This document shows positions 1,466 to 55,746 of a stretch of DNA of 64,000 nt, one piece after another. The notes below the pieces were generated by a model, which saw only the letters and a list, made by a program, of their open reading frames with translations, ran no database searches and was not told where the DNA came from. The first letter of the stretch is position 1. Every line of letters starts with the position of its first letter. The position numbers and the translations under genes are program-made. The stretch is taken from the NCBI GenBank assembly GCA_007376445.1, contig VMGF01000001.1:316203-380202 (forward strand). Direction: 5' to 3'. Source of the stretch: Parcubacteria group bacterium Gr01-1014_3. Its GTDB lineage: Bacteria > Patescibacteriota > Minisyncoccia > UBA6257 > WO2-44-18.

Positions 1466-1523
1466 CCAGGTAGTGAAAACTCGAGCCTGCCTGGCAAAAA
1501 ACACTCGAGTTTCTACTACCTGG
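1466..1523. repeat. Family A inverted-repeat element, copy 1 (58 nt; CCAGGTAGTGAAAACTCGAG ... CTCGAGTTTCTACTACCTGG)
   Basis: It is a near-perfect palindrome filling the valS-to-next-gene spacer. It ends 1 nt before the ATG at 1525. The same termini recur at 40637 and 48564. Confidence 0.85.
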
Positions 1524-1524
1524 A

Positions 1525-2223
1525 ATGCTGATCTTCAACTATATTTTACTTACAATTCTCGGCCTCGCGCCAAGCCTTACCTGGCTGGTTTTTTATCTCC
1601 GCGAGGACGCGAATCACCCCGAACCGCGCAAGCTTCTTTTATATACTTTCCTGTCCGGCGCCGTCATCACGCTGATGGTGCTTCAGATCCAGCTGATCGT
1701 GAATCGCTGGCTGGTGAATTCTGGCGTGGATGGCTACGGATCGATCTCATTCTTAATGCTGGCGATCGTGGAGGAGTTCTTTAAATTTCTGGCTGTCTAT
1801 TTGGTGATCCGATATCGGCCGGAGTTTGATGAGCCGGTGGACGCGATGATTTATATGATAGTCGGAGCGCTTGGTTTTGCCGCGGTGGAGAACGTGGCCT
1901 CGGTTTTTCAGGCGACTGGTTCCTTTTTCCCGAAACCTGGTCCGTTGGAGACCACTATCTTGCGGTTCGTGGGCGCGACCCTGCTTCACACGCTTGCTTC
2001 CGGTTTCGTGGGTTATGAGTGGGGAAAGGCTAAGGCGGAGGGCCGGGACCCAAAGTTCAGCATTTTCATCGGCCTTGTCGGCGCCACTTTATTGCACGCA
2101 ATTTTCAATTATCTTATAATTAAATCAGGTCCGGTAACGCTGCCGATAGTGCTCCTGGTTCTGGTAGCGCCGTTTCTTCTTAGCGATTTTGAAAAACTGA
2201 AACATCTCCGGAATAAAATTTAA
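1525..2223 (+). CDS. PrsW-family intramembrane metalloprotease-like membrane protein
   Basis: It is a multi-TM protein with EEFFKFL, FAAVEN and HTLASGF motifs resembling the PrsW EExxK / FxxxEN / H signature. Confidence 0.55.
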   Translation: MLIFNYILLTILGLAPSLTWLVFYLREDANHPEPRKLLLYTFLSGAVITLMVLQIQLIVNRWLVNSGVDGYGSISFLMLAIVEEFFKFLAVYLVIRYRPEFDEPVDAMIYMIVGALGFAAVENVASVFQATGSFFPKPGPLETTILRFVGATLLHTLASGFVGYEWGKAKAEGRDPKFSIFIGLVGATLLHAIFNYLIIKSGPVTLPIVLLVLVAPFLLSDFEKLKHLRNKI

Positions 2224-2227
2224 AACA

Positions 2228-2698
2228 ATGAATGAAGAAATAAAAAAAGAAGACGTAGATATGGAGGTGGACGGCGATAACGCCGAAGTTGAGATACAAC
2301 TCGCCAAGTCAGGTTCTTCCGTTAAAGAGCGGAAAGCTAAATCCGTCTCCGACGACGAATACGATGACGACGGCCAGCTGACCATCGATGTCTATCAGAG
2401 CCCCGATGAGATCATCCTAGAATCTCCAATCGCTGGTGTGCGGCCGGAGGATGTGGATGTTTCTATCACCAACGAATCCGTGACTATTAAAGGAAAGCGC
2501 GAGCATGAGCGCCGTGTCCGCGACGATGATTATTTTTATCAGGAATGCTATTGGGGGCGCTTTTCTCGCTCTATAATCCTTCCGCAAGAAGTAGACGCGG
2601 AACGTTCCGAGGCTTTTATAAAAAATGGCGTGCTGACGGTCAGGATGCCGAAGCTGAACCGGCAGAGATCCAAGAAACTTCACGTGAAATCGGAGTAA
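2228..2698 (+). CDS. Hsp20 / alpha-crystallin small heat shock protein
   Basis: The alpha-crystallin domain has the pattern LTIDVYQSP...VTIKGKRE...GRFSRSIILP...NGVLTVRMPK. It has an acidic N-terminal extension. Confidence 0.8.
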   Translation: MNEEIKKEDVDMEVDGDNAEVEIQLAKSGSSVKERKAKSVSDDEYDDDGQLTIDVYQSPDEIILESPIAGVRPEDVDVSITNESVTIKGKREHERRVRDDDYFYQECYWGRFSRSIILPQEVDAERSEAFIKNGVLTVRMPKLNRQRSKKLHVKSE

Positions 2699-2807
2699 AT
2701 CCCACGCATAAGCTTTATGTATGGGACGAAAATCCCGCTGGACAAGCGGGGTTTTTCTATGTAAAATTTGGGCAGTTGTACTTTGAAACTCAAAGTGAGG
2801 AAAAAAT

Positions 2808-3761
2808 ATGGGCATCGCGCTTGTGCTGCACGGAGGCGGATTCGCCGGCGCTAAGCAGGTTGGTTTTGCTAAAGAACTTTGGGCTCGAGGCAAGATTCCA
2901 TCGGTTATTCAGGTGGTTTCAGTCGGCGCGCTTAACGGCGCCGGGTTAGTCGAGGTTGGTCCCGAAGAAGTTGAACGACGCTGGCGGTTGATTGAAAGAA
3001 ATGGTCCCAGCTCGATTTTTAATTGGAAGGGCATGCCTTTCCATCTCATATCAATGTCTAACGCGCTCCTGAGCGATTACGGACTGAACGAGTTGGTGAA
3101 GCAACTCGATATGAGCAAGATCGTTTCCTCGCCGATCCGGCTGGAGGTGGCAGTTAGGAACGAAACAACTAATCAGCTGATGTTTTTTTCTAATCACGAC
3201 CTGGATATCAAAGAGAATCCAGAAATTCTTCGCAAGGCGATCAAAGCCTCAGCTAGCCTGCCGGGTATTTTCCCACCGGTTGAGATAAATGGAGAATATT
3301 ATTCTGATGCCTACTGCTTCGATCTGGAGCGCTTAGCGAAATTCGAAACAATTTTATTATTGATGAATGAAGAGCCTAAGGCGAACAAAGACCTTCATTC
3401 CCTGCCCTCATATCAGAGACTTTTTGTGGGATTCAACGAGATCCTGGACGATCTGGTGGAACTGAAAATCGATTCTTTCGTAGATAAGCATCCTGAGTTC
3501 AAGAGAATTAAGATCAGCTCCAATCTTGGAATCTTCGATCGGATTAAGAAAAAGCTGGCTGACGCGGCTTCTAAGATATTGGAAGCGCTGGACCTTAAAG
3601 ATTCACGCCAGCTTATCGTGATCAGTCCGGAATACAGTCTTCCTACTTTGAGACTCGATAGCTTTCACCTGCCTACCAAGACCCAGGAAGGCGATATTGG
3701 TAAGGCGATAAGACTTAGTCAGGAACAGGCCAGGCAGCTTCTGGATCAGTTAGAAATTTAA
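2808..3761 (+). CDS. patatin-like phospholipase family protein (motifs degenerate)
   Basis: It has an N-terminal LHGGGFAGAKQVGF glycine-rich loop and a VSVGALNGA nucleophile-elbow-like segment. The canonical GxSxG is not perfect. A hairpin plus T-run terminator lies at about 3765-3795. Confidence 0.4.
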   Translation: MGIALVLHGGGFAGAKQVGFAKELWARGKIPSVIQVVSVGALNGAGLVEVGPEEVERRWRLIERNGPSSIFNWKGMPFHLISMSNALLSDYGLNELVKQLDMSKIVSSPIRLEVAVRNETTNQLMFFSNHDLDIKENPEILRKAIKASASLPGIFPPVEINGEYYSDAYCFDLERLAKFETILLLMNEEPKANKDLHSLPSYQRLFVGFNEILDDLVELKIDSFVDKHPEFKRIKISSNLGIFDRIKKKLADAASKILEALDLKDSRQLIVISPEYSLPTLRLDSFHLPTKTQEGDIGKAIRLSQEQARQLLDQLEI

Positions 3762-3866
3762 GTCCCCTTTCGAAAGAAGGGGACTTTTGAATTTCACGGC
3801 CCATTTTTTATTGCGCCGGATTTAACTATCCTAGTGGCTAATCGCTAGTCGCTATATACTATTTAC

Positions 3867-4385
3867 ATGGTGGAATTCGCGACCGAGGGAATTGTTTTAG
3901 ATAAGGAAGATGTTGGCGATTACGACGCCAAAGTTTTTTTATACACCCGGGATTTCGGCAAAATTCAGGGTAAGGTAAAAAGTTTAAGAAAAATCACCTC
4001 CAAGCTAGCCGGCCACCTCGAGCCTTTGAATATGGTGTCTGTCCGGCTGATCAGTAGAAATATTAATTTTTCCAATTTTCAAATTGTGGATGCCCTCAAG
4101 ACCGGGCAACTGCCTTCCACAACCGGCCGGATGACCGCCTTAAGATTGATCAAGGAAATCGCGCCGGAGGGGAATATGGATCTCGCGCTTTGGGATCTTC
4201 TAGTTGGTGGAGAACTTTCCGCCGCCAAAGTTCTTTCTTTGTTGGGTTTTGACCCGACCTTTGCCAGCTGCCAGCAGTGTGGTGATAAAAAACAGCTCAA
4301 TTTTTTAATTAAAAACCTGAACTATTTCTGCGCCCCATGCCTTTCCGTGGCATCTATCTCTGAAAAGGTTTTTGTTCTAAAATAA
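3867..4385 (+). CDS. recO: DNA repair protein RecO (short form)
   Basis: It has an N-terminal OB-fold region GIVLDKEDVGDYDAKVFLYTRDFGKIQGKVKSLRK and a C-terminal CQQCG...CAPC zinc finger. Confidence 0.6.
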   Translation: MVEFATEGIVLDKEDVGDYDAKVFLYTRDFGKIQGKVKSLRKITSKLAGHLEPLNMVSVRLISRNINFSNFQIVDALKTGQLPSTTGRMTALRLIKEIAPEGNMDLALWDLLVGGELSAAKVLSLLGFDPTFASCQQCGDKKQLNFLIKNLNYFCAPCLSVASISEKVFVLK

Positions 4386-4390
4386 GGGAA

Positions 4391-6109: not shown

Positions 6110-6114
6110 TTCCT

Positions 6115-8974: not shown

Positions 8975-9018
8975 ATTCCCCGATAGAAATCGGGGAATTT
9001 TTTCTATATACTATCTCT

Positions 9019-11373: not shown

Positions 11374-11497
11374 GTAAATTTTCAATGCTCAATTTTAAAT
11401 TTTCATTGAATTTTCAATGAACTAATTTTTAAACCCTGAAAATTATCAAATTGATAATTGATTGGAAATTGTTGCTTGAAAATTGTAAATTGATTCT

Positions 11498-33522: not shown

Positions 33523-33723
33523 TTATAGACCCTCCGCTTTTTCGAGGTTAAAGTTAACAATTTCCGGTGGAGATGACAAGGATTGGTTTCGGGACTGAAT
33601 GACTCTTTTGGCGAGGAAAGATACGCCCAGGGAAGCGATGGCGCTCAGGATCATTAGTATTATCAATCCAGCTACTACCAGGGCGATCGAGGCCTTTCGA
33701 TGTTTTTCTTGATGGAAGTCCAT
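33523..33723 (-). CDS. hypothetical small membrane protein
   Basis: It has a single TM. Its ATG is formed at the terminus of Family B element copy 1. It overlaps another small ORF (33324-33560) out of frame. This may be a frameshifted gene. Confidence 0.3.
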   Translation of the reverse strand: MDFHQEKHRKASIALVVAGLIILMILSAIASLGVSFLAKRVIQSRNQSLSSPPEIVNFNLEKAEGL

Positions 33724-33840
33724 CCCGTTAGAAGCAGGTCGTCGAAGACGACCGTAGATCTGCCGTCCGACAACGGTTTGGTAAAAATTTTAATTTATTA
33801 TTCGGGTTTTGTGTCATAGATTAGTTGCTTCTAACGGGAT
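33722..33840. repeat. Family B inverted-repeat element, copy 1 (119 nt; ATCCCGTTAGAAGCA ... TGCTTCTAACGGGAT)
   Basis: It has 15-bp terminal inverted repeats. It exactly fills the spacer between the PilO-like stop and the 33723 start. A second 119-nt copy lies at 55628 in inverted orientation. Confidence 0.85.
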
Positions 33841-33845
33841 CCATT

Positions 33846-35424: not shown

Positions 35425-35475
35425 AGGAGTAATCGCGAATATACAAATAAAATATTTAATATTGCGAATAATAAA

Positions 35476-35613
35476 ATGAAGTTAGTCATCGTAGAATCTC
35501 CAACAAAAGTCCCGAAAAATTCCAAATCTTTAATTTGGTTATTTTTCGAGGATCCTCGATTTTGTCATCAAATCAAAGATTTGAACAAAATCGGGACAAA
35601 AACAATCATATGA
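35476..35613 (+). other. 45-codon upstream ORF that is a decayed duplicate of the topA 5' end and ends in ATGA overlapping the topA start
   Basis: MKLVIVESPTKVPKNSKSLIW... compared with the topA N-terminus MKLIIVESPTKAKTISKFLG. The first ~35 nt of the two starts are homologous. The stop TGA overlaps the topA ATG. Confidence 0.5.
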
Positions 35614-37676
35614 AGCTCATAATCGTAGAATCGCCCACTAAAGCTAAAACTATCTCTAAATTCTTAGGGCCTGATTACAAGGTGGAGTCTTCTTATGGTC
35701 ACGTGCGCGATCTTCCCAAAAGCAAACTTGGGGTTGATTTGGAGAATAATTTTGAACTTCAATATGTTATTCCGGTGAAAGCCAGGAAAGTTGTTAACCA
35801 GCTTAAAAAAGACGCGAAAGATAGCGATGAGGTAATTCTCGCGACTGATGAAGACAGAGAAGGCGAGGCGATCGCTTGGCATTTGAGTCAGGCGCTTGGA
35901 TTAAAAGACCAGAAAAATATTAAACGGATCGTTTTTCACGAAATTACCAAAGCCGCGATTGAAAAAGCTCTGCAAAATCCGAGATCGCTTGATCTGAACA
36001 TGGTGGACGCCCAGCAGGCGCGCCGCGCGCTCGACCGCCTGGTGGGTTACAAGCTTTCGCCGTTCTTATGGAAAAAGGTAGCGCGGGGATTGTCGGCTGG
36101 CCGCGTGCAATCCGTGGCGGTGCGGTTGATCGTTGACCGGGAAAACGAGATCCGGGCTTTCAAGCCGGAGGAATACTACACCATCATCGCTAATCTGAAG
36201 GCGGAGTCTGTGACGGCTCCAGTTGAGGCGCTCCTTTCTAAGATCGATGGAAAGTCTTTGGAGAAATTTGATATTAAGAACGGTGAGCAGGCGAACGAAA
36301 TAGTCAGCGATCTCAAAAAACAGAAATTTGTTGTTTCGAATGTGGAAAAGCGAACGGCCAAAAAGAATCCGCCACCGCCGTTCATCACCAGCACGCTTCA
36401 GCAGGAAGCCGTAAAAAGGCTGGGATTTTCTTCAAAGAAAACGATGTTTATCGCCCAACGTCTTTACGAACAAGGTTTGATCACCTATATGCGCACCGAT
36501 TCGGTGAATCTTTCCCAAGACGCGCTTATCGCCGCCAAAAGCTGGCTGGAGAAAACTTTCGGCGCTGAATACGCCGCCGCCGCGCCGCGCGTGTTCGCCG
36601 GTAAATCCCGTCTCGCCCAGGAAGCTCACGAAGCGATCCGCCCGACCGATGTGTCCAACGCGCCGGAAGATCTGAAAGATGAAAGTGATAAAAAACTTTA
36701 CAAAATGATCTGGCAGAGATTTTTGGGTTCGCAGATGCCGGAGGCCAGGGTCGCGCTGTCTTCTCTAGAGATCACCGCGGGAAAATATACCCTGAAGGCC
36801 AGCGGCCAGCAGATCATTTTTGATGGCTACCTTAAAATCTGGCCACAAAAGTTTTCAGAAAAAGAATTGCCGGTGCTGGCGAAGAACTCCGCTCTTGATC
36901 TGGCCGAGGCGAACGCCCTTCAGCACTTTACTGAGCCACCAGCCCGTTATTCTGAAGCCAGCTTAATTAAAGTCTTGGAAGAATACGGCATCGGCCGGCC
37001 TTCAACCTACGCGCCGATCATTTCGGTGATTCAGACACGCAACTATGTCCAAAAAGAAAAAGGCCGCTTCGTGCCGACCGAAACCGGAGAACTGGTCAAT
37101 AAAGTGATGACCGAGCATTTCGCGGCAGTGGTGGATATCGATTTTACCGCCAACATGGAAGAAGAGTTGGACCATATCGCGGACGGCAAGGAAAAATGGC
37201 AGGACGTGATCGGAAAATTCTACGGTCCATTCGCGAAAAATCTGGAAGAGAAATATCTGGAAGTTTCCAAGGCACCAGAAGAAACAACCGATGAGAAATG
37301 CGAAAAATGCGGAAAGCCGATGCTGATCAAAGCCGGCCGGTTTGGCAAATTCATGGCTTGCTCCGGTTTTCCGGATTGCAAAACCACCAAACCACTGCCG
37401 AAATCAGCGCCGAAGCTGACGGGGATCAAGTGTGAAAAATGCGGCGAAGGTGAATTAGTTGAGCGCCGGGTTAACAAGGGCCGGGCTCGCGGAAAGTTTT
37501 TCTGGGGCTGTTCGAAATATCCCAAGTGCGATAACGCGACCTGGCAAGATCCGACTAAGAAAGAAGGAGAGGGCGTCGTGACGGACGGCGCGAAGGCTGT
37601 TGAAAAGCCCGCTGACACTGACAGCGAATCCGAAACACCGGAAGGACCAGAAGAGCTCGATGTCGAATCAAAGTAA
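35610..37676 (+). CDS. topA: DNA topoisomerase I
   Basis: It has the Toprim N-terminus MKLIIVESPTKAKTI, the catalytic region, and three C-terminal CxxC zinc ribbons. The listed ORF start at 35535 is an N-terminal over-extension. Confidence 0.9.
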   Translation: MKLIIVESPTKAKTISKFLGPDYKVESSYGHVRDLPKSKLGVDLENNFELQYVIPVKARKVVNQLKKDAKDSDEVILATDEDREGEAIAWHLSQALGLKDQKNIKRIVFHEITKAAIEKALQNPRSLDLNMVDAQQARRALDRLVGYKLSPFLWKKVARGLSAGRVQSVAVRLIVDRENEIRAFKPEEYYTIIANLKAESVTAPVEALLSKIDGKSLEKFDIKNGEQANEIVSDLKKQKFVVSNVEKRTAKKNPPPPFITSTLQQEAVKRLGFSSKKTMFIAQRLYEQGLITYMRTDSVNLSQDALIAAKSWLEKTFGAEYAAAAPRVFAGKSRLAQEAHEAIRPTDVSNAPEDLKDESDKKLYKMIWQRFLGSQMPEARVALSSLEITAGKYTLKASGQQIIFDGYLKIWPQKFSEKELPVLAKNSALDLAEANALQHFTEPPARYSEASLIKVLEEYGIGRPSTYAPIISVIQTRNYVQKEKGRFVPTETGELVNKVMTEHFAAVVDIDFTANMEEELDHIADGKEKWQDVIGKFYGPFAKNLEEKYLEVSKAPEETTDEKCEKCGKPMLIKAGRFGKFMACSGFPDCKTTKPLPKSAPKLTGIKCEKCGEGELVERRVNKGRARGKFFWGCSKYPKCDNATWQDPTKKEGEGVVTDGAKAVEKPADTDSESETPEGPEELDVESK

Positions 37677-38850: not shown

Positions 38851-40588
38851 GCGGGGTCAAGGAGCTTTTATGAACGTAAAAGAACTTATTCAAAAAGACA
38901 AATACAGCCTAGTGGCGAGAGCCTATGAGTTCGCCCGCAAAGCCCACTTGGGCCAGAAGCGGAAAAACGGCGAACCTTACTTTACGCACGTCGTAGCCGC
39001 CGCTGACTCGGTTTTGGAATGGGGGCTGGATGATGAGACTGCCGCCGCGGCTTTGTTGCACGATGTCGTCGAAGATACGCCTCACCCGATCCAGGAGATC
39101 CGGGAAACATTCGGAGAGGAAGTCGCTTTCCTGGTGGATGGCGTCACCAAGATTGGCAAGGTCCGCTATCGGGGCATTGAGGCCAAGGTGGAAAATCTCC
39201 GGAAATTTATTTTGTATCTCAGCCAGGACATGCGCGTGATCTTGGTGAAGTTGGCCGATCGTCTTCATAATATGAAGACTTTGTATGCAGTTCAGCCGCA
39301 AAAGCAAAAGCGGATCGCGCTCGAAACCATGGAGATCTACGCGCCTCTCGCGTACCGCTTGGGTATGCAGAGGCTGAGTGGAGAGCTGGAAGATCTGTCC
39401 TTTCCATATATTTATCCAGAGGAGCATAAGTGGCTGATCGGTCATGTTAAAGAGCGCTTCGAGGAGCGGGAACGTTTCGCGCAAAAACTTCGCCCGGTTA
39501 TTGAAAAAGAACTTAATAAGAATGGCATTGAATCGGTCCGGATTGATTCACGCGCTAAACGGTATACGAGTTTATATAAAAAATTGCTCCGCTATGATAT
39601 GAACGTCGAGAGCATCTACGATCTCGTGGCTATCCGCATCATCGTTCCTTCGCTGGAGGACTGTTACTCGGCGCTGGGTATCGTCCACAAAATGTACCCG
39701 CCGGTACCTCATCGTTTCAAAGACTATGTCGCTCTTCCGAAGTCCAACGGTTATCGGAGTTTACACACCACGGTTTTCGGTCCGGAAAATAAGATCACCG
39801 AAATCCAGATAAAAACCGAGCAGATGCATGATGAAGCGGAGCATGGCATCGCCGCGCATTTCGCCTATCAAAAAACCAAAGACTCCAAGGATTATCTCAA
39901 GCGCAACGCCGCTTTTGCCGACAAAAAGGAGCTGGTTTGGGTTCAACAGCTGAAGAACTGGCAAAAGGGTTTTACGAATCCGGAAGAATTCCTGGCTTCT
40001 TTGAAGATAGACTTCTTTCAGGACAGGATATTAGCGCTCACGCCTAAGGGCGAAGTCTTTGATCTGCCGTTTGGCGCGACACCGGTAGATTTCGCCTATC
40101 AGATCCACACCGAAATCGGGAATCATTGCTCCGGCGTAAAGATCAACGGCAAGATCGGCACACTCGATCATTTGTTGAAATCCGGCGATATCGTGGAGAT
40201 CATCACGCAAAAAAATAAGAACCCCTCGGATTCCTGGCTTAACTTCGTACGCACCGGATCGGCCAAAAATCATATCCGCGCCGCTTTGCGCCACGGGAAG
40301 ACCACCTTAAATAAGAGCGAACCGCAGTTCACGGATTTTCGTCTGGCCGTAGCAAATAGAGATGGACTATTTAATGAGATTTCAAACTTAATATCCCGTT
40401 CGCACGGAAATATCCTGACGCTTAACGCTCAAACCACGACCAACGCCAAAGGCGGGCAAGCCGGCAATCAAAAACACACTCTACTCAAAATTCGTTGCGC
40501 GGTTTTGGCGAAAGATAAATCTGAAAAGATGCTGGAGAAGTTAAAAGGGTTTAAGGAAATAAAGGAAATTTCTTACAAGTCGGTTTAG
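38849..40588 (+). CDS. rel: bifunctional (p)ppGpp synthetase/hydrolase Rel/SpoT homolog (short, lacks ACT domain)
   Basis: It has an HD hydrolase domain HLGQKRKNGEPYFTHV...LHDVVEDT, a synthetase domain RIDSRAKRYTSLYKKL...YRSLHTTVFGP, and a TGS domain. It ends before a canonical ACT domain. The start may be the Met at 38870. Confidence 0.85.
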   Translation: MRGQGAFMNVKELIQKDKYSLVARAYEFARKAHLGQKRKNGEPYFTHVVAAADSVLEWGLDDETAAAALLHDVVEDTPHPIQEIRETFGEEVAFLVDGVTKIGKVRYRGIEAKVENLRKFILYLSQDMRVILVKLADRLHNMKTLYAVQPQKQKRIALETMEIYAPLAYRLGMQRLSGELEDLSFPYIYPEEHKWLIGHVKERFEERERFAQKLRPVIEKELNKNGIESVRIDSRAKRYTSLYKKLLRYDMNVESIYDLVAIRIIVPSLEDCYSALGIVHKMYPPVPHRFKDYVALPKSNGYRSLHTTVFGPENKITEIQIKTEQMHDEAEHGIAAHFAYQKTKDSKDYLKRNAAFADKKELVWVQQLKNWQKGFTNPEEFLASLKIDFFQDRILALTPKGEVFDLPFGATPVDFAYQIHTEIGNHCSGVKINGKIGTLDHLLKSGDIVEIITQKNKNPSDSWLNFVRTGSAKNHIRAALRHGKTTLNKSEPQFTDFRLAVANRDGLFNEISNLISRSHGNILTLNAQTTTNAKGGQAGNQKHTLLKIRCAVLAKDKSEKMLEKLKGFKEIKEISYKSV

Positions 40589-41559
40589 ACTGTGAAATCT
40601 TGCGGGGGGTACTGCTCGCCCTCTACTGGCTGCCTGCCAGGTAGTGAAAGTTCGGCAGGCTCGCCAGAGGCGAGCGGATCAGCAGTGGCCGAACTTCTAC
40701 TACCTGGTTCCGGGATTATTCTTTGCACGATATTCATCAGTTCTTCGGGAGAATAAAAAGCGATGGTCAGTTTGCCCGTGGCGCCGTCCTGCTCGAGTTT
40801 TACTTTTGTACCAAGCGCGGCTTCCAGGTCTTGTTGTACGCGGAGCAGTTCTGGATTAACGCCATAATTTAAAATCTCTGGCGCCGGCTGGGCTTTTTCT
40901 TGTTTCACTTTATCGATCCGGGATTTTAATTCGCGGACGCTGAGGTTGTTGCGTATAATATCCTCAAAAAGGAAATTTTGCTGCTGGATATCCGGCACGC
41001 TGAGAAGTAGGCGGCCCTGGCTTTCGTTGATCTGGCCACGGGCGACCGCGTCTTGGATCGGGGTCGGAAGAGCGAGCAGGCGGATGGTGTTGGCGACCAC
41101 CTCACGGCTTTTACCAAGGCGGGCGCCGATCTCGCGCTGGGTCAGGTTGAACTCATCCTGAAGCCGGGAGTAGGCGCGGGCGGCTTCGATGGCGTTTAAG
41201 TTGGAGCGCTGGACGTTTTCCAAGATAGCCAACTCCAACCGATCCCGATCGCGATTGATGCTTTTGATGATCGCCGGAATACGTTCCAGGCCGGCCATCT
41301 GGGAAGCTCGCCAGCGCCGTTCACCGGCGATAAGCTGATACTGAACTTGTGTGCCCGTCTCAGTTTCCTGCTCAACCTTGGTGACGATGATCGGCTGAAG
41401 CACGCCGAATTCTCGGATGGAAGCCGCGAGCTCGCCCAATTCTTGTTCGTTAAATTCCCGCCGTGGCTGATACGGGTTAGGGGAGATCCGGTCGGTTTCA
41501 ATTAAAAAAACTGGGCCTTGAATCGGTAAGTCTTCCATAATATTCACAGTATAGCCCAA
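40585..41559 (-). CDS. parB: chromosome partitioning protein ParB/Spo0J
   Basis: It has the ParB box GERRWRA and an HTH. The native C-terminus KLTIAFYSPEELMNIVQRII is extended by about 35 aa that read into Family A element copy 2. Confidence 0.85.
   Translation of the reverse strand: MGYTVNIMEDLPIQGPVFLIETDRISPNPYQPRREFNEQELGELAASIREFGVLQPIIVTKVEQETETGTQVQYQLIAGERRWRASQMAGLERIPAIIKSINRDRDRLELAILENVQRSNLNAIEAARAYSRLQDEFNLTQREIGARLGKSREVVANTIRLLALPTPIQDAVARGQINESQGRLLLSVPDIQQQNFLFEDIIRNNLSVRELKSRIDKVKQEKAQPAPEILNYGVNPELLRVQQDLEAALGTKVKLEQDGATGKLTIAFYSPEELMNIVQRIIPEPGSRSSATADPLASGEPAELSLPGRQPVEGEQYPPQDFTV
40637..40707. repeat. Family A inverted-repeat element, copy 2 (71 nt; CCAGGTAGTGAAAGTTCGGC ... 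GCCGAACTTCTACTACCTGG)
   Basis: It has the same termini as copies 1 and 3, including the conserved TGAAA/TAGAA asymmetry. Its internal stem has a different sequence but remains complementary. Confidence 0.8.
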
Positions 41560-45935: not shown

Positions 45936-46034
45936 TGTTTATTAATGAATAAATAATTTTCAATTATAAATTATAAATTTTAAATTAATTTAAAATTTTA
46001 AAATTAAAAATTTATAATTCATTTTGGTTAATGA

Positions 46035-47513
46035 CTATGTTCGGTATAACAATAGGTCCCCCTTGGCGATTTTGGTGGTTGACTCAACCAGGAGGCCGCA
46101 CTCATTTCCGGTCTCAATTTTACCAGCATCCTTTTTGCCCTGTTGTAGGTTAGTGATTTTCAATTCGCCAATAACCGAACCGTTCCGTTCGATAGCTAGC
46201 GTGGATTTATTCAAGATCACGCCCTCGATGACTTTCCCGCCGATAATTTGCTTGCCTGCAGTAGCCTTAGCGGGGGTGGTTTTTCCGCTCTCCCCAAAGA
46301 TGGCCAGAATTTCCAGACGACCGACAACCTGAGGCAGATAGGCCTTTGCCAGCTCTTGCTCGATAACTTTCAAAAGATCGTAAACGATCTCAGATTGGAT
46401 AATTTTAATTTTATGATCCAGGGCCAGAGCTTCCGCCGGTTTAGTGATTTTTGTTTTAAAACCCACGATAACGGCCTTGGTGGAGATCGCGAGTTTTACA
46501 TCGCCATCGGTGATATCGCCGACCGATTCTTCAATGATCTCAATTTTCTGAGTTTTCTTGAGCGGCAGACTTTTTACGATTTCCGCGAGCGCTTCCAAAG
46601 AACCCGAAACATCAGCTTTCAGGATCACGTTCACATCGGACTCGCTGGTCTTGCTCGCCGCGATAACTTTCTTAATTTTAATATTCGGTTCATTTTTTCC
46701 GGCCACGAAATTTTCACCGGCCTTCGGCAGGCTTTCCAATCCAAAGATCAGCGCAGGGGAAGATGGGCTGATTTCTTTGACCGCTTTGCCCAAAAAGTTT
46801 TCCAGCATTTTCACTTTGCCGTTGGCGCTCTCGGTGGAAATGAGATCTCCGAAGCGTAAAGTGCCATCGGTCACGATGACCGTGGCTACGACGCCGCGGC
46901 GGGAGTCCATTTTGGATTCCAAAATCAAACCGCTGGCCGGTTTAGCGGGATCATATTCCAGATCTTCCAGTTCCGAAGCCAAGAGAACCAGGTCGAGAAG
47001 TTCATTTACGCCTTGGCCGCTTTTGGCGGAAATTTCCTGATTGCTTACATCGCCACCATAGCCTTCGAGGAATACTTCGCTCTGCATCAGCTCGTTTTTA
47101 ATTTTATTCGGATCCACGCCTTCCTTGTCGATTTTATTGATAGCGACAATGAAAGTCGTTTTAGTTTCTTTAAGAATTTTTATTGCGGCTTTAGTTTGTG
47201 GCTGGACGCCGTCATCGGCGGCTACCACCAAGATTGCCACGTCGGCGACATGCGCTCCGCGAGTTTTCATCTTACCGAAAGCTTCATGGCCCGGAGTGTC
47301 AATAAAAGTGATTCGCGCTGCTTGTCCTGAGCTTGCCGAAGGATGGACAATCTCATAAGCCCCAATGGACTGGGTAATACCGCCGGCTTCTTTAGCGGCT
47401 ACGTTGGTCTTCCGGATATAGTCGAGCAGCGTGGTCTTTCCATGGTCCACACTGCCCATGATTACTATGATAGGCGATCGTTTTGGCATAGTTATGTGGT
47501 TAAAGATTGCCAC
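46035..47513 (-). CDS. infB: translation initiation factor IF-2 (short form lacking N-terminal domains)
   Basis: It has the G-domain IVIMGSVDHGKTTLLDYI, GGITQSIGAY and DTPGHEAF, followed by beta-barrel domains. It is upstream of rbfA on the same strand. Confidence 0.9.
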   Translation of the reverse strand: MAIFNHITMPKRSPIIVIMGSVDHGKTTLLDYIRKTNVAAKEAGGITQSIGAYEIVHPSASSGQAARITFIDTPGHEAFGKMKTRGAHVADVAILVVAADDGVQPQTKAAIKILKETKTTFIVAINKIDKEGVDPNKIKNELMQSEVFLEGYGGDVSNQEISAKSGQGVNELLDLVLLASELEDLEYDPAKPASGLILESKMDSRRGVVATVIVTDGTLRFGDLISTESANGKVKMLENFLGKAVKEISPSSPALIFGLESLPKAGENFVAGKNEPNIKIKKVIAASKTSESDVNVILKADVSGSLEALAEIVKSLPLKKTQKIEIIEESVGDITDGDVKLAISTKAVIVGFKTKITKPAEALALDHKIKIIQSEIVYDLLKVIEQELAKAYLPQVVGRLEILAIFGESGKTTPAKATAGKQIIGGKVIEGVILNKSTLAIERNGSVIGELKITNLQQGKKDAGKIETGNECGLLVESTTKIAKGDLLLYRT

Positions 47514-47648
47514 AAAAATTGATTTTGAGCAAATTCTGTAAAATTTTAAAGTCCAAATTTTAAATTTTAAGTTAATTTTTTAATTTTGAAATTTATAAAT
47601 TGATTTAAAATTGAAAATTTAAAATTGAAAATTCTGTATACTTAAGGT

Positions 47649-48542: not shown

Positions 48543-48563
48543 TGTTGTATAATTAGGAATATG

Positions 48564-48684
48564 CCAGGTAGTGAAAACTCGAGCAATGAATTCAGCGAGA
48601 AAGCTAAGTTTTTACTATCCAGCATGCCAGGCAAGGAGACTCGGTCCTGTCTGGCAAAACTAAACTCGAGTTTCTACTACCTGG
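48564..48684. repeat. Family A inverted-repeat element, copy 3 (121 nt, carries a ~60-nt nested internal insertion)
   Basis: Its termini are ccaggtagtgaaaactcgag ... cctgtctggcaaaactaaactcgagtttctactacctgg. The outer halves are colinear with copy 1. The internal segment itself contains a degenerate end-to-start junction (tttttactatccagcatgccagg). It ends 1 nt before the ATG at 48686. Confidence 0.8.
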
Positions 48685-48685
48685 T

Positions 48686-50053
48686 ATGCGATTAGTTGAA
48701 AAATTCTTTGTAATTGTAGCTTTGGTTCTGGGCGGATGCGCGGTTATTGCAGCGATGGAGCCGAACTATGCCCTGGCGGCTTCCAAGATTATTTCTATCA
48801 GCATAGATAATCCGGATGGGCCGTTAAAATCATCTACGGTTAGTTTCTCTATACCATTTGGCCTGGCGCCGATCAACTTAACCGACGCGATGAATTGGAA
48901 TTCAAGCGCGAGGCGGCTTGAGATCGATCTCGGTTCGTTCACCACCAAAGAAACCAAGACGGTAATTTTTGCTATCGAAGGCGAGCTCGGAAATTATTTA
49001 GTGAGCGGTGAGATCACCGGCGTCTGGCCGAAAACCAACTCGTTGCCGGAAGAATCTTTCAAAGGCACGATCGATCCATTCGTGGTGCTGATCGAGCCGG
49101 AAGGTAGCCAATCTTCAGTTTTAGAATTTCTGGACAATCTTAGGCGTGATCCTCGCGTGGCCGGTCCTATGGCCAAGATCGCCCAGCCGGTTTCCGTGGC
49201 TCTAGGCGCCGTTGGCACAGCCGCCGCGGCTGCCAACGCTTTTATGACGAGCCCGGCGCTTCTCGCCGAGCTTTCCCGCCTGCTCAGCTTGTTTGGCTTC
49301 GGTATGTTCCGTCTTAAAAAACGGAAGCCATGGGGTCGGGTCTACGACCGCCTGACTGATAATCCGATCTATGGAGCGGTAGTTAAAATATTTGATTCAA
49401 AATATAAATTGGCGAAAGAAACGCAGACCACGGACAAAGAAGGTCGTTTTGGATTTTTAGTTTCGTCGGGCGAGTATTACATCCGCATTATACGCGCCGG
49501 CTATGAAGATTATCAGTCCGCGCTTATTAAAATTTCCCAGCCGGATCAGTCTTTGATCTTGGATGTGCCGATGGTAGTAACGGGAGCAACGATAAAGAGG
49601 CCAATGATCAACACCCTGAAACTCAAGCAGCAGCTTCGTGACGTTTTTTATGTCAGCGGTTTGGCGCTGACGGTGATCGGCAGTCTGATCAGCTTGGCGG
49701 TGGCGCTGATAGTGCCGAGTATACTCAACTACGGGATCGTGTTGGTTTATCTGATCCTCTGGGTCTTCCGGATTGGGATGGCGCACGAGCATGTTAAATC
49801 TTTCGGCAAAGTTTTGGATAAGTCCACGAATAAACCGGTGGATCTGGCCGTGGTCAGATTATTCTCCGCCGATCAATCCTGGTTATTGGAGACGCGAGTG
49901 ACCGACGCGAGCGGCAAGTTCCGTTTCTTGGTGAATCACGGCGGTTATTATGTGACTGCCGTCAGAGAAGGATATGGGTCTTTCCAGTCCGCTCCGCTAG
50001 AACTTAAGAAATCCGACGTCTTCGCGCACGATATTAAAATAGAGAGGGCATAG
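48686..50053 (+). CDS. membrane protein with two carboxypeptidase-regulatory-like (CarboxypepD_reg) domains
   Basis: It has an N-terminal TM. Two homologous blocks, VVKIFDSKYKLAKETQTTDKEGRFGFLVSSGEYYIRIIRAGYEDYQS and VVRLFSADQSWLLETRVTDASGKFRFLVNHGGYYVTAVREGYGSFQS, are separated by TM helices. Confidence 0.5.
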   Translation: MRLVEKFFVIVALVLGGCAVIAAMEPNYALAASKIISISIDNPDGPLKSSTVSFSIPFGLAPINLTDAMNWNSSARRLEIDLGSFTTKETKTVIFAIEGELGNYLVSGEITGVWPKTNSLPEESFKGTIDPFVVLIEPEGSQSSVLEFLDNLRRDPRVAGPMAKIAQPVSVALGAVGTAAAAANAFMTSPALLAELSRLLSLFGFGMFRLKKRKPWGRVYDRLTDNPIYGAVVKIFDSKYKLAKETQTTDKEGRFGFLVSSGEYYIRIIRAGYEDYQSALIKISQPDQSLILDVPMVVTGATIKRPMINTLKLKQQLRDVFYVSGLALTVIGSLISLAVALIVPSILNYGIVLVYLILWVFRIGMAHEHVKSFGKVLDKSTNKPVDLAVVRLFSADQSWLLETRVTDASGKFRFLVNHGGYYVTAVREGYGSFQSAPLELKKSDVFAHDIKIERA

Positions 50054-50174
50054 AAATAATTTTCAATTTCCAAATACCAATTTTCATTCAACAATCAATA
50101 TTCAAACTTCAACCGGTTTGAAAATTAATCCTTGTAAATTGATTGAAAATTGTAAAATTGAGAATTGATAATTT

Positions 50175-51704: not shown

Positions 51705-51729
51705 TTATTCATTATATAATAAGAAGACT

Positions 51730-52770
51730 ATGCAGCGAAAAATCATCATCGGTATTTTGGTTATTATCGGGATAGCTTTACTTTTCTGGTTCGTGTCAAA
51801 ACCGGCGGCTCGGACCGTGGCTTTCCATCAGTATTTTATTGAGAACCGATATTTCGCGCCGGATCCGACCAAATTAGATTTGGAGAATATGGAAGCGGTG
51901 TTCCAGCATGTTTTTCTCGCGCTGGATTCAGCCGTAATGGTTTATCCCACGGAAAATTATTATTATTTCGTGCTGAATGTGTCCTCCGAAGGAGGATCGG
52001 CCTCCGGCGGAGATGGAAAGCCCATTCGACAGGCTCAGGGCAAGCCGATCTGGGGGAATTTGCATCTGGGCCCGGAGTCGCGCGACGCCGGGTTGATAGA
52101 TTTTGCTTACTGGGAATTCAAGGACCAGCCACGGCTGGCAAGTGCGCCTGATTTAGAAAATGATCGTTCGGTGAAATACCGCCAGTTCGGAAAAGCCGAT
52201 GGCCTGGTCATTAAAAAATTAACCGGTCTTCAATACCAGATTTCATATCGCGGGAAAACGGTTCTTTTTTCCATGAACCATCTCCCCCAAACACCGCCGA
52301 AGAATTTTCCTTTAAGGCCAGGCGAAGTTTTCACGCAGAAAACCTTTGATGAATCGGGATACAGCTTTTTTCTGATCAGAAATATGATGCCGCCAGCTTT
52401 TTCTTTCGTGCTTAATGATGAAGTTGACCTGCCCGAACCGCTGACCCCCATTCATAAAAATATTTGGATCGGGAAAAAATCCGGATTCGTATTTTATGAA
52501 GATCCAGAGGATCATCGCAAGACCTTGATCGGCATCAGCCAGGTAAATGCCAGTAAAAATAACTATTATGACGGCCCATTTGATCAGCTGGCGGATAATT
52601 ACGTGAAAGGGGATGAATTTAAGGACGCGATCTTGGCTGTTTATCCGTTACTGGCCGGCAAGATCGATAAGTATGGGCAGTTTTTAGACCGCGCGGGCGC
52701 CCGTTTGGCGATCGCTCCCTATCAAACCTATGAAAAGCTTGAGGATCTATATGATATAATTAAAAAATGA
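51730..52770 (+). CDS. hypothetical membrane-anchored protein
   Basis: It has an N-terminal TM and no recognisable motifs. Confidence 0.4.
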   Translation: MQRKIIIGILVIIGIALLFWFVSKPAARTVAFHQYFIENRYFAPDPTKLDLENMEAVFQHVFLALDSAVMVYPTENYYYFVLNVSSEGGSASGGDGKPIRQAQGKPIWGNLHLGPESRDAGLIDFAYWEFKDQPRLASAPDLENDRSVKYRQFGKADGLVIKKLTGLQYQISYRGKTVLFSMNHLPQTPPKNFPLRPGEVFTQKTFDESGYSFFLIRNMMPPAFSFVLNDEVDLPEPLTPIHKNIWIGKKSGFVFYEDPEDHRKTLIGISQVNASKNNYYDGPFDQLADNYVKGDEFKDAILAVYPLLAGKIDKYGQFLDRAGARLAIAPYQTYEKLEDLYDIIKK

Positions 52771-53111
52771 TTGAAGAAGATAAAAAGAAGAAAAAGCTCC
52801 GGCTTATCGTCTGGGCTCTGACCACCTCATTTGTTTTATTGGTAATTTGCGTTTTCACGGCGCTAGGTTTGAATCCATTTTATCCACTAGGTACTCCGAA
52901 GGGTTATATTCCGACCGTTACTTTGGCCCTGGACCGTTCCATTTTTGGACAGGAGCCGTTGGTTTTGGCGAGCGTGAGTTTGCCGATGATGGTACCACCG
53001 CTTCCGACCACGCTGGCTTTCCCAATGCCGAAACTGGAAGCCGAACTTAATTTAGATAAGAAATTTTCCCCGGTTATCACTCCAACTGTTACTTATAAAC
53101 CAGCTTATTAA
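52767..53111 (+). CDS. hypothetical small membrane protein
   Basis: It has an N-terminal TM. It overlaps the upstream stop and abuts the 53113 gene, consistent with an operon with the surface protein. Confidence 0.35.
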   Translation: MIEEDKKKKKLRLIVWALTTSFVLLVICVFTALGLNPFYPLGTPKGYIPTVTLALDRSIFGQEPLVLASVSLPMMVPPLPTTLAFPMPKLEAELNLDKKFSPVITPTVTYKPAY

Positions 53112-53112
53112 A

Positions 53113-55560
53113 ATGGCCGATCTGAATCCAGCAAAACCAAAAACTCCGGACCAGTCCGCCTCTGACCGATTGGTTAAAAAAGACAATCGCAGGCTCACCT
53201 GGACGATAGTTGGGTTAATTACCGTAGTCACGCTTCTGCTTTTATGTATTTTACCGGGCAGTCCGGCGCTTGCCGTTCTTTTGAAATTGCCGGAAAAAGC
53301 CCAGCCAGTGATTACTAAGCTTGAGTCAATCTCTTTTGATCCAGTTGGCCCGTCTTCCGGTTCCGGCGGCGGATCTTCCAGCGTCGAGTTTCCAGTCGGG
53401 TCTTCCATTATAGTTAATGTTCCGCCCGATTTGACTAGGCCTCGACCCACGCCAACTCCTCCTCGCCGTTGGCCTGACTGTGTTCGTCCGGTTATCGGCA
53501 TCACCACGGCTACCACCGAAATTGAAGAATGTCCGGATTCCAGTATTCCAAAACCACCGCCACCGCCACCAACTCCAGTACCGGGTGAACCGAAGAAGCC
53601 AGCGGTCTTTGATTTCGGAGACGCGCCGGATAAGCCGAAAGGCGGTTTCCCATCATTACTATCCAGCAGCGGAGCCAGGCACTTTGACGTGAGCCGGTTT
53701 TATTTGGGCAAACGCGTGGATGTTGAGGGAGATTCTAAGCAGGTAGATGCCGATAGTGCCACTCCGCCAGCCGGTGTCGGTCCTGACGATGGTTTGAATA
53801 TAACCCTAAGTCTTGGCGTGGGCGCCGCGGGTACGGCTCTTGTAGATGGCATCGCGGAAATTCACAATAATAATTGGCCGGAAGAAAAACCGATCTATTT
53901 AAATGCCTTATATGATTTCAATAACAATCTTCAATGGGACATTCCAGGAGAGCACGTAGTTACCGATTATGAATTACACATTCCGCCAGGCGAGAGCGTG
54001 TACGGCAATATTATTTCCTTAAGCGCGAATAGATTAAATTGGCTCCGGGCCACGGTCTCAGAAATTCCACTTGGACTCGGCTATAACGGTTCCTGGTCAA
54101 AGGCGTTTGATTTTGGTGAAACTGAAGATTATTTCAAGCCGGAAATTTATCCTATCCATATAGTCAAAGGTTCGCACTTCGTCTTTACGTCGGAGGATAG
54201 AGAGCACAAGTGGGGTCCTTCGCAGATACATATAACTGGACCTACATACGGAGTTCCGGTAGAGACAGGGGGAGGTAGGCCAAAAGATCCCGGCCCAGCC
54301 ACGATTGATATGACCAAGCCGACTCCAGCCAAGCCAGGAACCGATGTTCCGACCTTTGATCCACGGCTGTTTACCCATGAAGGGGCAACGACGCGTCTGA
54401 CTCCGAGAAAACCAGGGTCAAACGTTGATCCGAACCCGACTTCTTTAATCATTACCTTACCGACGCAGCGGGGTGGATTATCGGTGGTGAATATATTTCC
54501 GATTCCAGATTTCTTAACCAGCGCCATTACTCAAATTCAAATTCGCAATCTCGAGCGGACATTGTTTCATCTGGAGCAGTTAGCGGATCGCCCGATTACT
54601 AGAATCCGAACAGTTCAGAAAGAGATCGAGGTACTCAAAGAAGTTATCAAGCTTGTGCCGACCCCGACTACACCGATCGGCGGTATCACCGCGCCGGCGC
54701 AGTATAAAATTGAGGTAATCGGTATCGATACCGGCAAAGGAACAATGGACATTCAGGCCTATGGCTTTGTATCCGGCAATAATGAGGTTGAAATATTGGA
54801 ATACTCTGCCAACGGACAATTACTTAATAAAACCAGCAAGCCATTTAATACCGCGAGTTTCCGGTTTGAATTTAAGAGTTTCTCAGGAGCCGTCTCGATA
54901 GTAATGCGATTGGTTCATAATGGCGATGTAGTGCCGGGTACTAGCATTAATGTTCCGTCCGTGGCTACGATAACCGGGGGACTGAGCGGCGCTGGGCCAC
55001 AGTGCCAATACACGATCTCGCTGGACGATACTCTTGCTGATGGGACGGCGAATACCGCTTACAGCCAGACAGTTACCGCGACCGGTGGCAGTGGCTCATA
55101 TACCTACGCCGTTACGGCTGGTTCTTTACCAACAGGCCTGACCCTTGCTTCTAACGGAACAATTACCGGCACGCCGACTACCGCCGCGACCTACGCATTT
55201 ACGATCACCGCGACGGATGTTAGCGGCTGTACCGCAAGCCGGGCATATTCTGTGACTATTGCCAGCGCTTGCCCAACCGTTTCTTTCTCTCCTACCGACT
55301 TCGTAGATGGTCAAGATGGGCGTGCAAGCGATACGAGCGTAGCTGGTACCTTGACTTCCAGTACCGGAACAGGAAGTAACCAGGCTTTGAATATGCCTCC
55401 TGGGGTTGATGTGAATATATCTGGATCTGGCACGGGTGTTATAACCTGGAACATACTTGGTACGCCTATAGGCGTGGGCGATTACTCCTTTACCGCTAGG
55501 ATAGCAGTTGCTGGTTGTTCTAATTTAGATACACCATTTACTTGGACGGTTACGCCTTAA
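53113..55560 (+). CDS. large surface protein with GEVED-like domain and C-terminal He_PIG (putative Ig) domain
   Basis: It has an N-terminal TM and a Pro-rich linker. The block FDFGDAPDKPKGGFPSLLSSSGARH...DVEGDSKQVDAD...GETEDYF is GEVED-like. The C-terminus YSQTVTATGGSGSYTYAVTAGSLPTGLTLASNGTITGTPT matches He_PIG. A terminator ccagctcctttattggagctgg lies at about 55583-55610. Confidence 0.6.
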   Translation: MADLNPAKPKTPDQSASDRLVKKDNRRLTWTIVGLITVVTLLLLCILPGSPALAVLLKLPEKAQPVITKLESISFDPVGPSSGSGGGSSSVEFPVGSSIIVNVPPDLTRPRPTPTPPRRWPDCVRPVIGITTATTEIEECPDSSIPKPPPPPPTPVPGEPKKPAVFDFGDAPDKPKGGFPSLLSSSGARHFDVSRFYLGKRVDVEGDSKQVDADSATPPAGVGPDDGLNITLSLGVGAAGTALVDGIAEIHNNNWPEEKPIYLNALYDFNNNLQWDIPGEHVVTDYELHIPPGESVYGNIISLSANRLNWLRATVSEIPLGLGYNGSWSKAFDFGETEDYFKPEIYPIHIVKGSHFVFTSEDREHKWGPSQIHITGPTYGVPVETGGGRPKDPGPATIDMTKPTPAKPGTDVPTFDPRLFTHEGATTRLTPRKPGSNVDPNPTSLIITLPTQRGGLSVVNIFPIPDFLTSAITQIQIRNLERTLFHLEQLADRPITRIRTVQKEIEVLKEVIKLVPTPTTPIGGITAPAQYKIEVIGIDTGKGTMDIQAYGFVSGNNEVEILEYSANGQLLNKTSKPFNTASFRFEFKSFSGAVSIVMRLVHNGDVVPGTSINVPSVATITGGLSGAGPQCQYTISLDDTLADGTANTAYSQTVTATGGSGSYTYAVTAGSLPTGLTLASNGTITGTPTTAATYAFTITATDVSGCTASRAYSVTIASACPTVSFSPTDFVDGQDGRASDTSVAGTLTSSTGTGSNQALNMPPGVDVNISGSGTGVITWNILGTPIGVGDYSFTARIAVAGCSNLDTPFTWTVTP

Positions 55561-55627
55561 AACTCTAACCTGTTAACAAAACCAGCTCCTTTATTGGAGC
55601 TGGTTTTGTTATAATAAAATGGAATGA

Positions 55628-55746
55628 ATCCCGTTAGAAGCAACTGGTCAATAATTATGAAAAACGATCTCATTTTTACGATAACCCTAGAATCAAATAG
55701 TCGGGCACTTTACGGTCGTCTAATGACGACCTGCTTCTAACGGGAT
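55628..55746. repeat. Family B inverted-repeat element, copy 2 (119 nt, inverted relative to copy 1)
   Basis: atcccgttagaagcaac ... cggtcgtctaatgacgacctgcttctaacgggat. The last AT of the right terminus plus a flanking G forms the start codon of the 55745 gene. Confidence 0.85.

Follow-up and report, generated by a model that had tools for sequence, protein, structure and literature searches.

The stretch of DNA considered here, 64,000 nucleotides (nt) of contig VMGF01000001.1 from Parcubacteria group bacterium Gr01-1014_3 (hereafter the window, on which all positions are counted), contains two families of palindromic repeat elements, A and B, most copies of which directly abut the start codon of a protein-coding gene. 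A preliminary description of the sequence had noted this placement and had proposed either a target-site preference for ATG or a regulatory hairpin covering the translation start. Here we describe the elements of the window, compare them with copies from public genomes and metagenomes, and argue that they are mobile elements whose residence on start codons is probably close to neutral for the genes concerned.

Palindromic elements of the window

We retain the copy numbers of the preliminary description (A1, A2/A3, B1 and B2) and designate an additional copy as A4. The first of these, A1, is a short family A element of 58 nt on the plus strand (1466-1523), which is made up of the inverted-repeat arms CCAGGTAGTGAAAACTCGAG and CTCGAGTTTCTACTACCTGG and an 18-nt loop. 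It is bounded by two copies of the tetranucleotide AATG, which constitute a target-site duplication (TSD). The upstream copy (1462-1465; ATG 1463-1465) holds the position of the native PrsW start codon, which before the insertion lay 4 nt past the stop codon of the upstream tRNA-synthetase gene, and the downstream copy (1524-1527) provides ATG 1525-1527, the working start of the PrsW gene (1525-2223). The encoded PrsW protein has 232 amino acids (aa), and homologues of 225-232 aa span 97-100% of it. The second, a composite element that we term A-long (48564-48684, plus strand, 121 nt), comprises copy 2 (48564-48623), an internal ATG (48624-48626) and copy 3 (48627-48684); its outer arms pair perfectly, its inner ends are decayed, and it can be aligned with 45 other A-long elements, which form a subfamily of about 130 nt in other genomes. 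It is bounded by TATG at 48560-48563 (ATG 48561-48563) and again at 48685-48688, where ATG 48686-48688 opens an open reading frame (ORF) of 455 aa (48686-50053); a TATAAT box (48548-48553) ends 7 nt before the upstream ATG.

Both window copies of family B are long elements with a terminal T...A. B1 (33723-33839, minus strand; core 33724-33838) has the arms TCCCGTTAGAAGCA and TGCTTCTAACGGGA, and ends in A 33723, the first base of the ATG (33723-33721, minus strand) of a 66-aa ORF. Its upstream TSD copy, TGGA (33840-33843), follows A 33844 and so forms an upstream ATG (33844-33842), with the stop codon of a PilO-like gene 5 nt earlier; the downstream TGGA (33719-33722), together with the terminal A of the element, rebuilds the ATG of the 66-aa ORF. 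B2 (55629-55745, plus strand; core 55630-55744) is inverted on the chromosome with respect to B1 and has the same orientation to its own gene. It is flanked by TGAA at 55625-55628 (upstream ATG 55624-55626, with a TATAAT box at 55610-55615, 8 nt before it) and at 55746-55749, and ATG 55745-55747 opens an ORF of 1492 aa. Each of these two elements contains an upstream open reading frame (uORF): that of B1 (33728-33817, minus strand) has 29 codons and a stop (MTQNPNNKLKFLPNRCRTADLRSSSTTCF), its TAA lying in the right arm, 4 nt before the ATG of the gene, and that of B2 (55657-55740, plus strand) has 27 codons and a stop (MKNDLIFTITLESNSRALYGRLMTTCF), its TAA (55738-55740) likewise lying 4 nt before ATG 55745.

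The preliminary description had stated that four of five copies end at a start codon. All four junctions (A1 with ATG 1525, A3 with ATG 48686, B1 with ATG 33723 on the minus strand, and B2 with ATG 55745) are present in the sequence, but the number of copies has to be revised, as family A copies 2 and 3 together make up a single composite element and a diverged copy had been overlooked. As the coordinates above show, every one of these start-codon copies has a second ATG at its upstream edge, and the presence of ATG on both edges indicates that it belongs to the TSD. The A1 and B1 sites are junctions of 4-5 nt within operons, and we infer that the TATAAT boxes upstream of A-long and B2 are -10 boxes, in a geometry resembling that of a leaderless transcript.

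The overlooked copy, A4 (40636-40708, plus strand), lies in the 3' end of parB (minus-strand ORF 40585-41559) and not on a start codon. It has no recognisable TSD, and the parB frame runs through it as ...IVQRIIPE, PGSRSSATADPLASGEPAELSLPG, RQPV..., continuing for 16 more codons after the element. Its insertion appears to have lengthened the C-terminus of ParB, in the manner of the Rickettsia palindromic elements (RPEs) in other genes.

Insertion, target-site duplications and family structure

The A1 site has an empty counterpart in a relative with the same gene order and a PrsW protein 94% identical to that of the window. This relative reads GTTTAGCCGAATGCAG (in a longer stretch, GTTTAGCCGAATGCAGATC), where the window reads GTTTAGACGAATG, 58 nt, and AATGCTGATC, i.e. 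...GAATG, the element, and AATGCTG. The 62-nt excess of the window over the surveyed loci L244 and L245 corresponds exactly to the 58-nt palindrome plus a second AATG, which proves, at the level of sequence, that A1 is an insertion with a 4-bp AATG TSD.

The flanks of other copies lead to the same conclusion. Family A elements are mostly bounded by TATG...TATG (CATA...CATA on the other strand), and the remainder by CCGA, TTTG, TCAA, TTGA, AAAA or CAAG at both ends; since these flanks vary and yet match on the left and right, they are true duplications and not part of the element. Single-strand insertion of the IS200/IS605 type 3' of a fixed tetranucleotide was considered and is ruled out by this covariation of the flanking bases. 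The 113-125-nt subfamily of family B has the form ATGNN-T-CCCGTTAGAAGC...GCTTCTAACGGG-ATGNN, in which NN covaries between left and right (AA, GA, AG, TA, GG). It is best parsed as an element with arms ending in T...A and a 4-bp TSD of the form TGNN, the terminal A serving to rebuild the ATG. Variants are consistent with this parse: L233 reads cTTGG to the left and ATGG to the right, and in L234 and L146 the ends are C...G and the rebuilt codon is GTG. A 60-66-nt subfamily of family B has C...G ends and duplications of TCAA, TAAA, TTGA, TTAA or CAAG. In the long subfamilies the TSD thus overlaps the start codon in a defined register, with family A duplicating (T/C/A)ATG and family B duplicating TGNN after an A, and this register is constant over hundreds of copies from many genomes. 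The earlier suggestion that the AATG/TATG flanks reflect an ATG-related target-site preference is therefore upheld, given that the flanks are true 4-bp TSDs, as the empty site shows, and the ATG register is fixed.

The terminal inverted repeats of both families begin with CC(A/C)G(G/T)TAG, and the two were probably moved by related enzymes. The arms measure 20 nt in family A and 13-15 nt in family B, which has in addition a second stem of 7 bp. With terminal inverted repeats, a TSD of fixed length backed by an empty site, and many small dispersed copies devoid of a transposase gene, families A and B are, on their sequence features, two related families of non-autonomous transposons, i.e. MITEs (short for miniature inverted-repeat transposable elements).

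Distribution and placement across Patescibacteria

The survey for family A took one genome per species and used as probe the arm motif CCAGGTAGTRRAARYTCG, free of flanking bases, and that for family B used CCCGTTAGAAGCARST on metagenomes; each search recovered at least 120 loci. These include at least 69 paired copies of family A and at least 112 of family B, 45-461 nt in length and mostly from Parcubacteria-type genomes. Family A arms paired at a distance of 58-155 nt come from Yanofsky-, Portnoy-, Harrison-, Doudna- and Liptonbacteria, as well as from other Parcubacteria-type metagenome-assembled genomes, and the unpaired family A motif matches outside Patescibacteria look like chance matches. 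As far as these samples go, both families are largely confined to Parcubacteria-type Patescibacteria (bacteria of the candidate phyla radiation, CPR) and are widespread there.

We scored an ATG as start-like if, on the rebuilt empty site, it was followed by at least 60 open codons and preceded by at most 25. Among the matches listed, family A was start-like at 35 of 69 copies on the strict scale and at about 42 of 69 on a looser one, against 9.2% of 5,203 YATG control sites in the same loci (p ~1e-18). For long family B, 59 of the 70 listed copies followed by a start codon (76 copies overall) were start-like, against an expectation of 38.5% for non-coding ATGAA sites (p ~4e-15). The survey of copies for their distance from start codons, which the preliminary description had set as a check, thus finds those of the long subfamilies, which measure about 115-150 nt, mostly exactly on starts, well beyond chance. 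By a crude gene caller, start codons account for 30-38% of non-genic motif sites, whereas the elements reach 61-64% when scored as strictly and 76-84% under the looser limits. Hence, sequence preference alone is insufficient, and selection, extra targeting or both must act. Nor is the placement due to lack of room: before insertion, more than 30 nt separated the target from the upstream co-directional ORF at 70% of the family A and 47% of the family B sites.

The proteins encoded downstream include ribosomal L14, L22, S13, L5, L31 and L2, as well as SSB, RecR, RecA, MreB and SecA. Pfam profiles align from residues 1-6 of the downstream L14, L22, S13, L31, SSB and MreB proteins (and from residues 17-41 of L5, L2 and RecA), so that the ATG after the element marks the true N-terminus. 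The possibility that the element is translated as an N-terminal extension is ruled out both by these profile starts and by the reading frames, as the length of the element plus 4 is not consistently a multiple of 3 and ORFs from the upstream ATG stop inside it. Across the surveyed loci, orthologous genes in other lineages have empty start sites. Moreover, the same gene (SecA, a ComM-like ATPase and others) may bear an element of family A in one lineage and of family B in a second (the pairs L061 and L210; L123 and L188; L180 and L112; L102 and L229), with further orthologues empty, which indicates that some start codons have been hit repeatedly and independently.

Relative to the gene, one orientation also prevails, by 37:6 in family A and 54:5 in family B among the matches listed. 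A replication-strand bias is an unlikely cause: within one replichore, B1 and B2 occupy opposite strands, each co-oriented with its own gene, and GC skew does not change sign across the window, so that orientation tracks the gene and not the direction of replication. No evident reason accounts for this bias in family A. Upstream of the original ATG, Shine-Dalgarno-like motifs are rare, and a TATAAT-like box ends 6-8 nt before it at 18 of 64 sites in family B and at 5 of 38 in family A, a geometry that suggests leaderless or nearly leaderless transcripts.

The short subfamilies behave less uniformly. Some of their copies lie inside the 3' ends of genes; some of their TSDs contain TGA or TAA and some arm TAGs close a long ORF, in a pattern too inconsistent to establish a preference for stop codons. 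In several short copies (L004, 1536-1610; L023, L053, L069, L129 and L217) the ORF of the flank ends at the TAG of an arm (CCAGGTAG or CCCGTTAG); in L004 this ORF has 513 codons. It seems that short elements can supply the stop codon of a gene that they enter near its 3' end.

The search for an empty B1 site by way of the PilO-like neighbour recovered one relative, which likewise carries B1, and the protein downstream of B2 had no homologues that could lead to an empty site; for family B, empty orthologous sites came instead from the comparison of the surveyed loci. B1 is identical at 116 of 116 positions in two other assemblies, L250 and L251, with flanking genes that are only 92.5% and 87% identical at the DNA level (p ~2e-5). 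Such conservation is unexpected, since a non-coding passenger should diverge faster than genes and B1 has diverged more slowly; it suggests either constraint or gene conversion.

Anatomy, predicted folding and the uORF of family B

Long family A elements resemble a fused dimer of the short form, consisting of the 5' arm, a small GC hairpin, a decayed internal end (ACTATCTGG), an A/T-rich stretch and the 3' arm. The stop codons of the ORF that begins at their upstream ATG (MPGSENS...) are scattered within the element. Long family B elements have a 12-bp outer stem, an ACCT bulge, a second stem of 7 bp and a variable A/T-rich centre, and the second stem shows compensatory changes (GC to TA or AT) at two positions. 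Folded together with their flanks, the elements are predicted to form stems of 20-24 bp with energies of -37 to -60 kcal/mol, in which the two copies of the duplication pair through G·U, U-A, A-U and U·G, so that both AUGs would be buried. An Rfam scan of the window matched only tRNAs and nothing at the elements, and promoter and terminator scans around B2, A2/A3 and B1 found no sigma-70 -35/-10 consensus inside them.

Like the two window copies, 35 of 65 long family B copies among the matches listed contain a uORF. Its ATG lies about 28-58 nt into the element, it is 18-28 codons long, and it ends at a TAA in the 3' arm (CTTC-TAA-CGGG-ATG), 4 nt before the rebuilt ATG; in 5 of these 35 copies the frame already opens at the upstream ATG and reaches 38-40 codons. 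ORFs of at least 18 codons beginning with ATG number only 0-2 in each of the five other frames (p ~1e-34). The uORF peptides are not conserved apart from the ending encoded by the arm (T-A/T-T-C-F), and in one closely related pair compared by eye most changes are non-synonymous, so it appears to be the open frame that matters and not the peptide. The position of the uORF points to translational coupling, and this mini-gene probably keeps the downstream gene translated. Among the copies without the uORF, L162_1736, L169_64 and L179_1611 have a minimal ATGTAA or TTGTAA about 15-20 nt before the second stem.

A probable start-codon lifestyle and its alternatives

We consider it most probable, at roughly 0.6, that these elements are MITEs with a start-codon lifestyle, living largely in Patescibacteria as nearly neutral selfish insertions. 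Their transposase would prefer short ATG-containing targets, and selection in compact genomes would retain mainly the copies on real start codons in gene orientation, as no others would leave the genes on both sides intact and able to be expressed. After insertion, one ATG stands in the old upstream context and an identical ATG directly after the element heads the intact gene. In the mRNA, the modelled 20-24-bp hairpin would bury this rebuilt AUG, and translation entering the element would reopen the stem and rescue expression. For family B, the uORF would start in the A/T-rich centre, read through and unwind the 3' arm, and stop at a UAA 4 nt before the AUG, the rescue then amounting to termination-reinitiation coupling, a process reviewed in PMC12548453. 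For family A, the ORF from the upstream AUG could conceivably unzip the 5' arm. The element would thus be a selfish insertion built to be nearly neutral for expression rather than a dedicated regulator.

Several observations weigh against this reading. Fixed copies alone cannot separate targeting from selection, and the survey counts are samples of public genomes and metagenomes and not censuses. The target is asymmetric, in that ATG is conserved and its mirror is not, which would be atypical of a symmetric DDE transposase. We looked in 240 loci (~1.5 Mb) for an autonomous element or a transposase with matching ends and found none: pairs of CCNGNTAG ends 0.7-3 kb apart turned out to be neighbouring MITEs only, and viral contigs, searched with the family A pattern, gave nine unpaired matches and no paired ends. 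The chemistry of transposition and any target preference are therefore inferences. On the side of expression, frame analysis of family A found no ORF coupled to the gene, which makes the rescue mechanism tenuous there, and about 45% of the long family B copies have no uORF and keep the same site and orientation. Finally, the conservation of B1 hints at more constraint than a neutral passenger would be under.

A tentative variant, which we regard as possible but do not favour, is that these MITEs are specialised for start codons. Here the transposase would recognise ATG with its context in one direction and so aim insertion actively at translation starts, and the elements would bring translation-restoring devices of their own (the terminal A and the uORF) that allow them to colonise even ribosomal-protein genes; hosts may then use the hairpins as a dispersed form of post-transcriptional control.

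It is unlikely, at the other extreme, that survivorship alone explains the pattern, with little or no preference for ATG and gene-dense genomes filtering for those insertions that duplicate the start and leave both neighbours intact. The tight junctions holding A1 and B1, where few positions are tolerable, would fit such filtering, as would the short copies inside gene 3' ends; the off-ATG duplications of the short subfamilies (TCAA, TAAA, TTGA, CAAG) further indicate that the enzyme family can use other targets. However, the register is fixed at NATG for family A and A|TGNN for family B, even though shifts by one nucleotide would be equally harmless. Free spacer of more than 30 nt was available at the 70% and 47% of sites noted above, and starts, which make up 30-38% of non-coding motif sites, hold 61-84% of the elements observed. 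Moreover, few copies of the long subfamilies lie in other neutral places, such as convergent gene ends.

We regard as distinctly improbable a cis-regulatory hairpin, in which the element is retained because its stem occludes the start, working as a thermometer or as a switch that an RNA, a protein or a helicase would open, the scattered copies forming a dispersed regulon. Several features would suit such a role: the predicted fold buries the AUG and the duplicated bases, the orientation of the element follows the gene, B1 is perfectly conserved amid diverging flanks, stem 2 of family B shows compensatory changes, and the internal ACTATCTGG of A-long could pair with the 5' arm as an alternative structure. 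Yet the stability of known RNA thermometers lies in a range far below that of stems of 20-24 bp and -37 to -60 kcal/mol. The elements have no Rfam match, their targets are unrelated housekeeping genes (ribosomal proteins, RecA, SSB, MreB, SecA), and at the same gene the element is absent from close relatives and orthologues; the element centre is highly variable, and duplications together with empty sites point to spread by transposition and not to descent of a regulatory site. The thermometer-like or riboregulated switch envisaged in the preliminary description accordingly finds no support in the stability of the stems, the Rfam scan, the nature of the target genes or the relative that lacks the element.

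That the elements are mobile promoter or 5' untranslated region cassettes, with transcripts (and in family B also translation) starting inside them so that the hairpin never forms, as might be compared with the Correia and REP2 repeats of Neisseria, is highly improbable: the A/T-rich centre of family B often has TATGATAAT-like strings, and repeats carrying a promoter, ribosome-binding site and ATG have precedents (PMC3184786), but the window copies contain no sigma-70 -35/-10 consensus, the 18-nt loop of A1 has no room for a promoter, and A1, B1 and many others lie inside operons, including ribosomal-protein operons, where read-through transcription is certain.

Relation to known repeats and transposons

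Literature searches found no description of such elements in Patescibacteria. The nearest parallel comes from MIRUs, the interspersed repetitive units of mycobacteria, which are direct or tandem units of 40-100 bp, without long terminal inverted repeats or a hairpin. As summarised in PMC12548453 from Supply et al. 1997, they insert at start codons and the ORF of the repeat is coupled to the gene. The claim in the preliminary description that the repeats would connect with gene expression in a novel manner was for this reason overstated. The MITEs described here share with MIRUs the character of short dispersed repeats at start codons between genes, a small co-oriented ORF, and an insertion thought to be nearly neutral for expression, with the coupling being a prediction in our case. 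They agree in start-codon site and co-orientation and, in 35 of 65 long family B copies, in the internal ORF, which has no coupled counterpart in family A; they differ in the type of repeat, being palindromic MITEs with 4-bp TSDs from Patescibacteria and not from mycobacteria. The spacing is also different, as the MIRU ORF overlaps the gene start (-4) whereas the family B uORF stops 4 nt before the ATG. By this analogy MIRUs are the closest functional precedent, and the elements here would work like MIRUs without being members of that class. As both MITEs and MIRU-type coupling are already known, what appears new from the sequences is the residence of MITEs on start codons and, in family B, a built-in, putatively coupling uORF.

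The Correia elements of Neisseria (CREE or NEMIS) have terminal inverted repeats of about 26 bp. They are likewise MITEs (100-150 bp), adjacent to genes, co-transcribed, able to form long hairpins and to alter expression (PMC3184786). Unlike the elements here, they duplicate TA, are not locked to starts, carry promoters and a site for integration host factor, and have ends without sequence similarity to those of families A and B. The REP2 repeats of Neisseria and the inverted-repeat (IR) repeats of Borrelia lie immediately upstream of ORFs and supply the ATG initiation codon (PMC3184786). They differ in having neither terminal inverted repeats nor duplications and in carrying a promoter and ribosome-binding site; in our elements, the ATG comes from the target duplication (family A) or from the terminal A plus the duplication (family B).

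RPEs sit in frame inside Rickettsia genes, and A4, read in frame inside the 3' end of parB, resembles them; this likeness is confined to A4, as the families here are mostly on start codons and not within coding sequence. Repetitive extragenic palindromes and the bacterial interspersed mosaic elements built of them (REP/BIME) produce no duplication and lie mostly after the 3' ends of genes. Mobilised by REP-associated tyrosine transposases (RAYTs), they are palindromes of 20-40 nt with a GTAG or CGTC head (PMC3733652). Membership in this group is ruled out for our elements, which are 58-155 nt long, have 4-bp TSDs and lie at gene 5' ends.

As for the source of the transposase, IS1380 elements have ends beginning with CC and a duplication of 4-5 bp, and piggyBac targets TTAA. 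Families A and B have comparable CC ends and 4-bp TSDs, and the TNAA-like targets of the short subfamilies (TCAA, TAAA, TTAA) recall TTAA; we know of no ATG-containing targets for either IS1380 or piggyBac. IS1380 has served as the prokaryotic outgroup of piggyBac (PMC10813416), and a derivation from this assemblage is offered only as a lead.

Other repeats in the window

A third palindrome (35509-35597, within 35467-35643) has 29-nt arms with 76% complementarity and family B-like ends, GTCCCG...CGGGAC. On either side of it stands a 43-nt copy of the topA start region (ATGAAGTTAGTCATCGTAGAATC... and ATGAAGCTCATAATCGTAGAATC..., 77% identical to each other), and it is with the downstream copy that the real gene begins. 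A duplication of 43 nt departs from the 4-bp rule, and the palindrome had no match among the 251 surveyed loci. In addition, A/T-rich low-complexity repeats of the AAATTGAAAATTGAAAATT type lie between genes at 512-569, 11379-11436, 45949-46010, 47578-47639 and 50053-50174. A 62-nt inverted pair of these (82% complementary) flanks an IF-2-like gene (46035-47513). These repeats could be promoter or terminator regions, and they bound no insertion sequence.

Implications

In bacteria whose genomes are reduced and whose ribosomes are unusual, the elements set very stable predicted hairpins directly beside the start codons of essential genes, and thereby constitute a natural, many-times-repeated experiment on translation that starts beside strong structure. 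They bear on the use of Shine-Dalgarno-poor or leaderless starts, on termination-reinitiation and on the helicase activity of the ribosome in these lineages. For genome annotation, they mark true start codons and explain duplicated ATGs and spurious short upstream ORFs in Patescibacteria assemblies, and the design of the uORF suggests the idea of a portable "insulator" for synthetic biology. If the cognate transposase were found, its ATG-containing target would represent a new kind of target choice.

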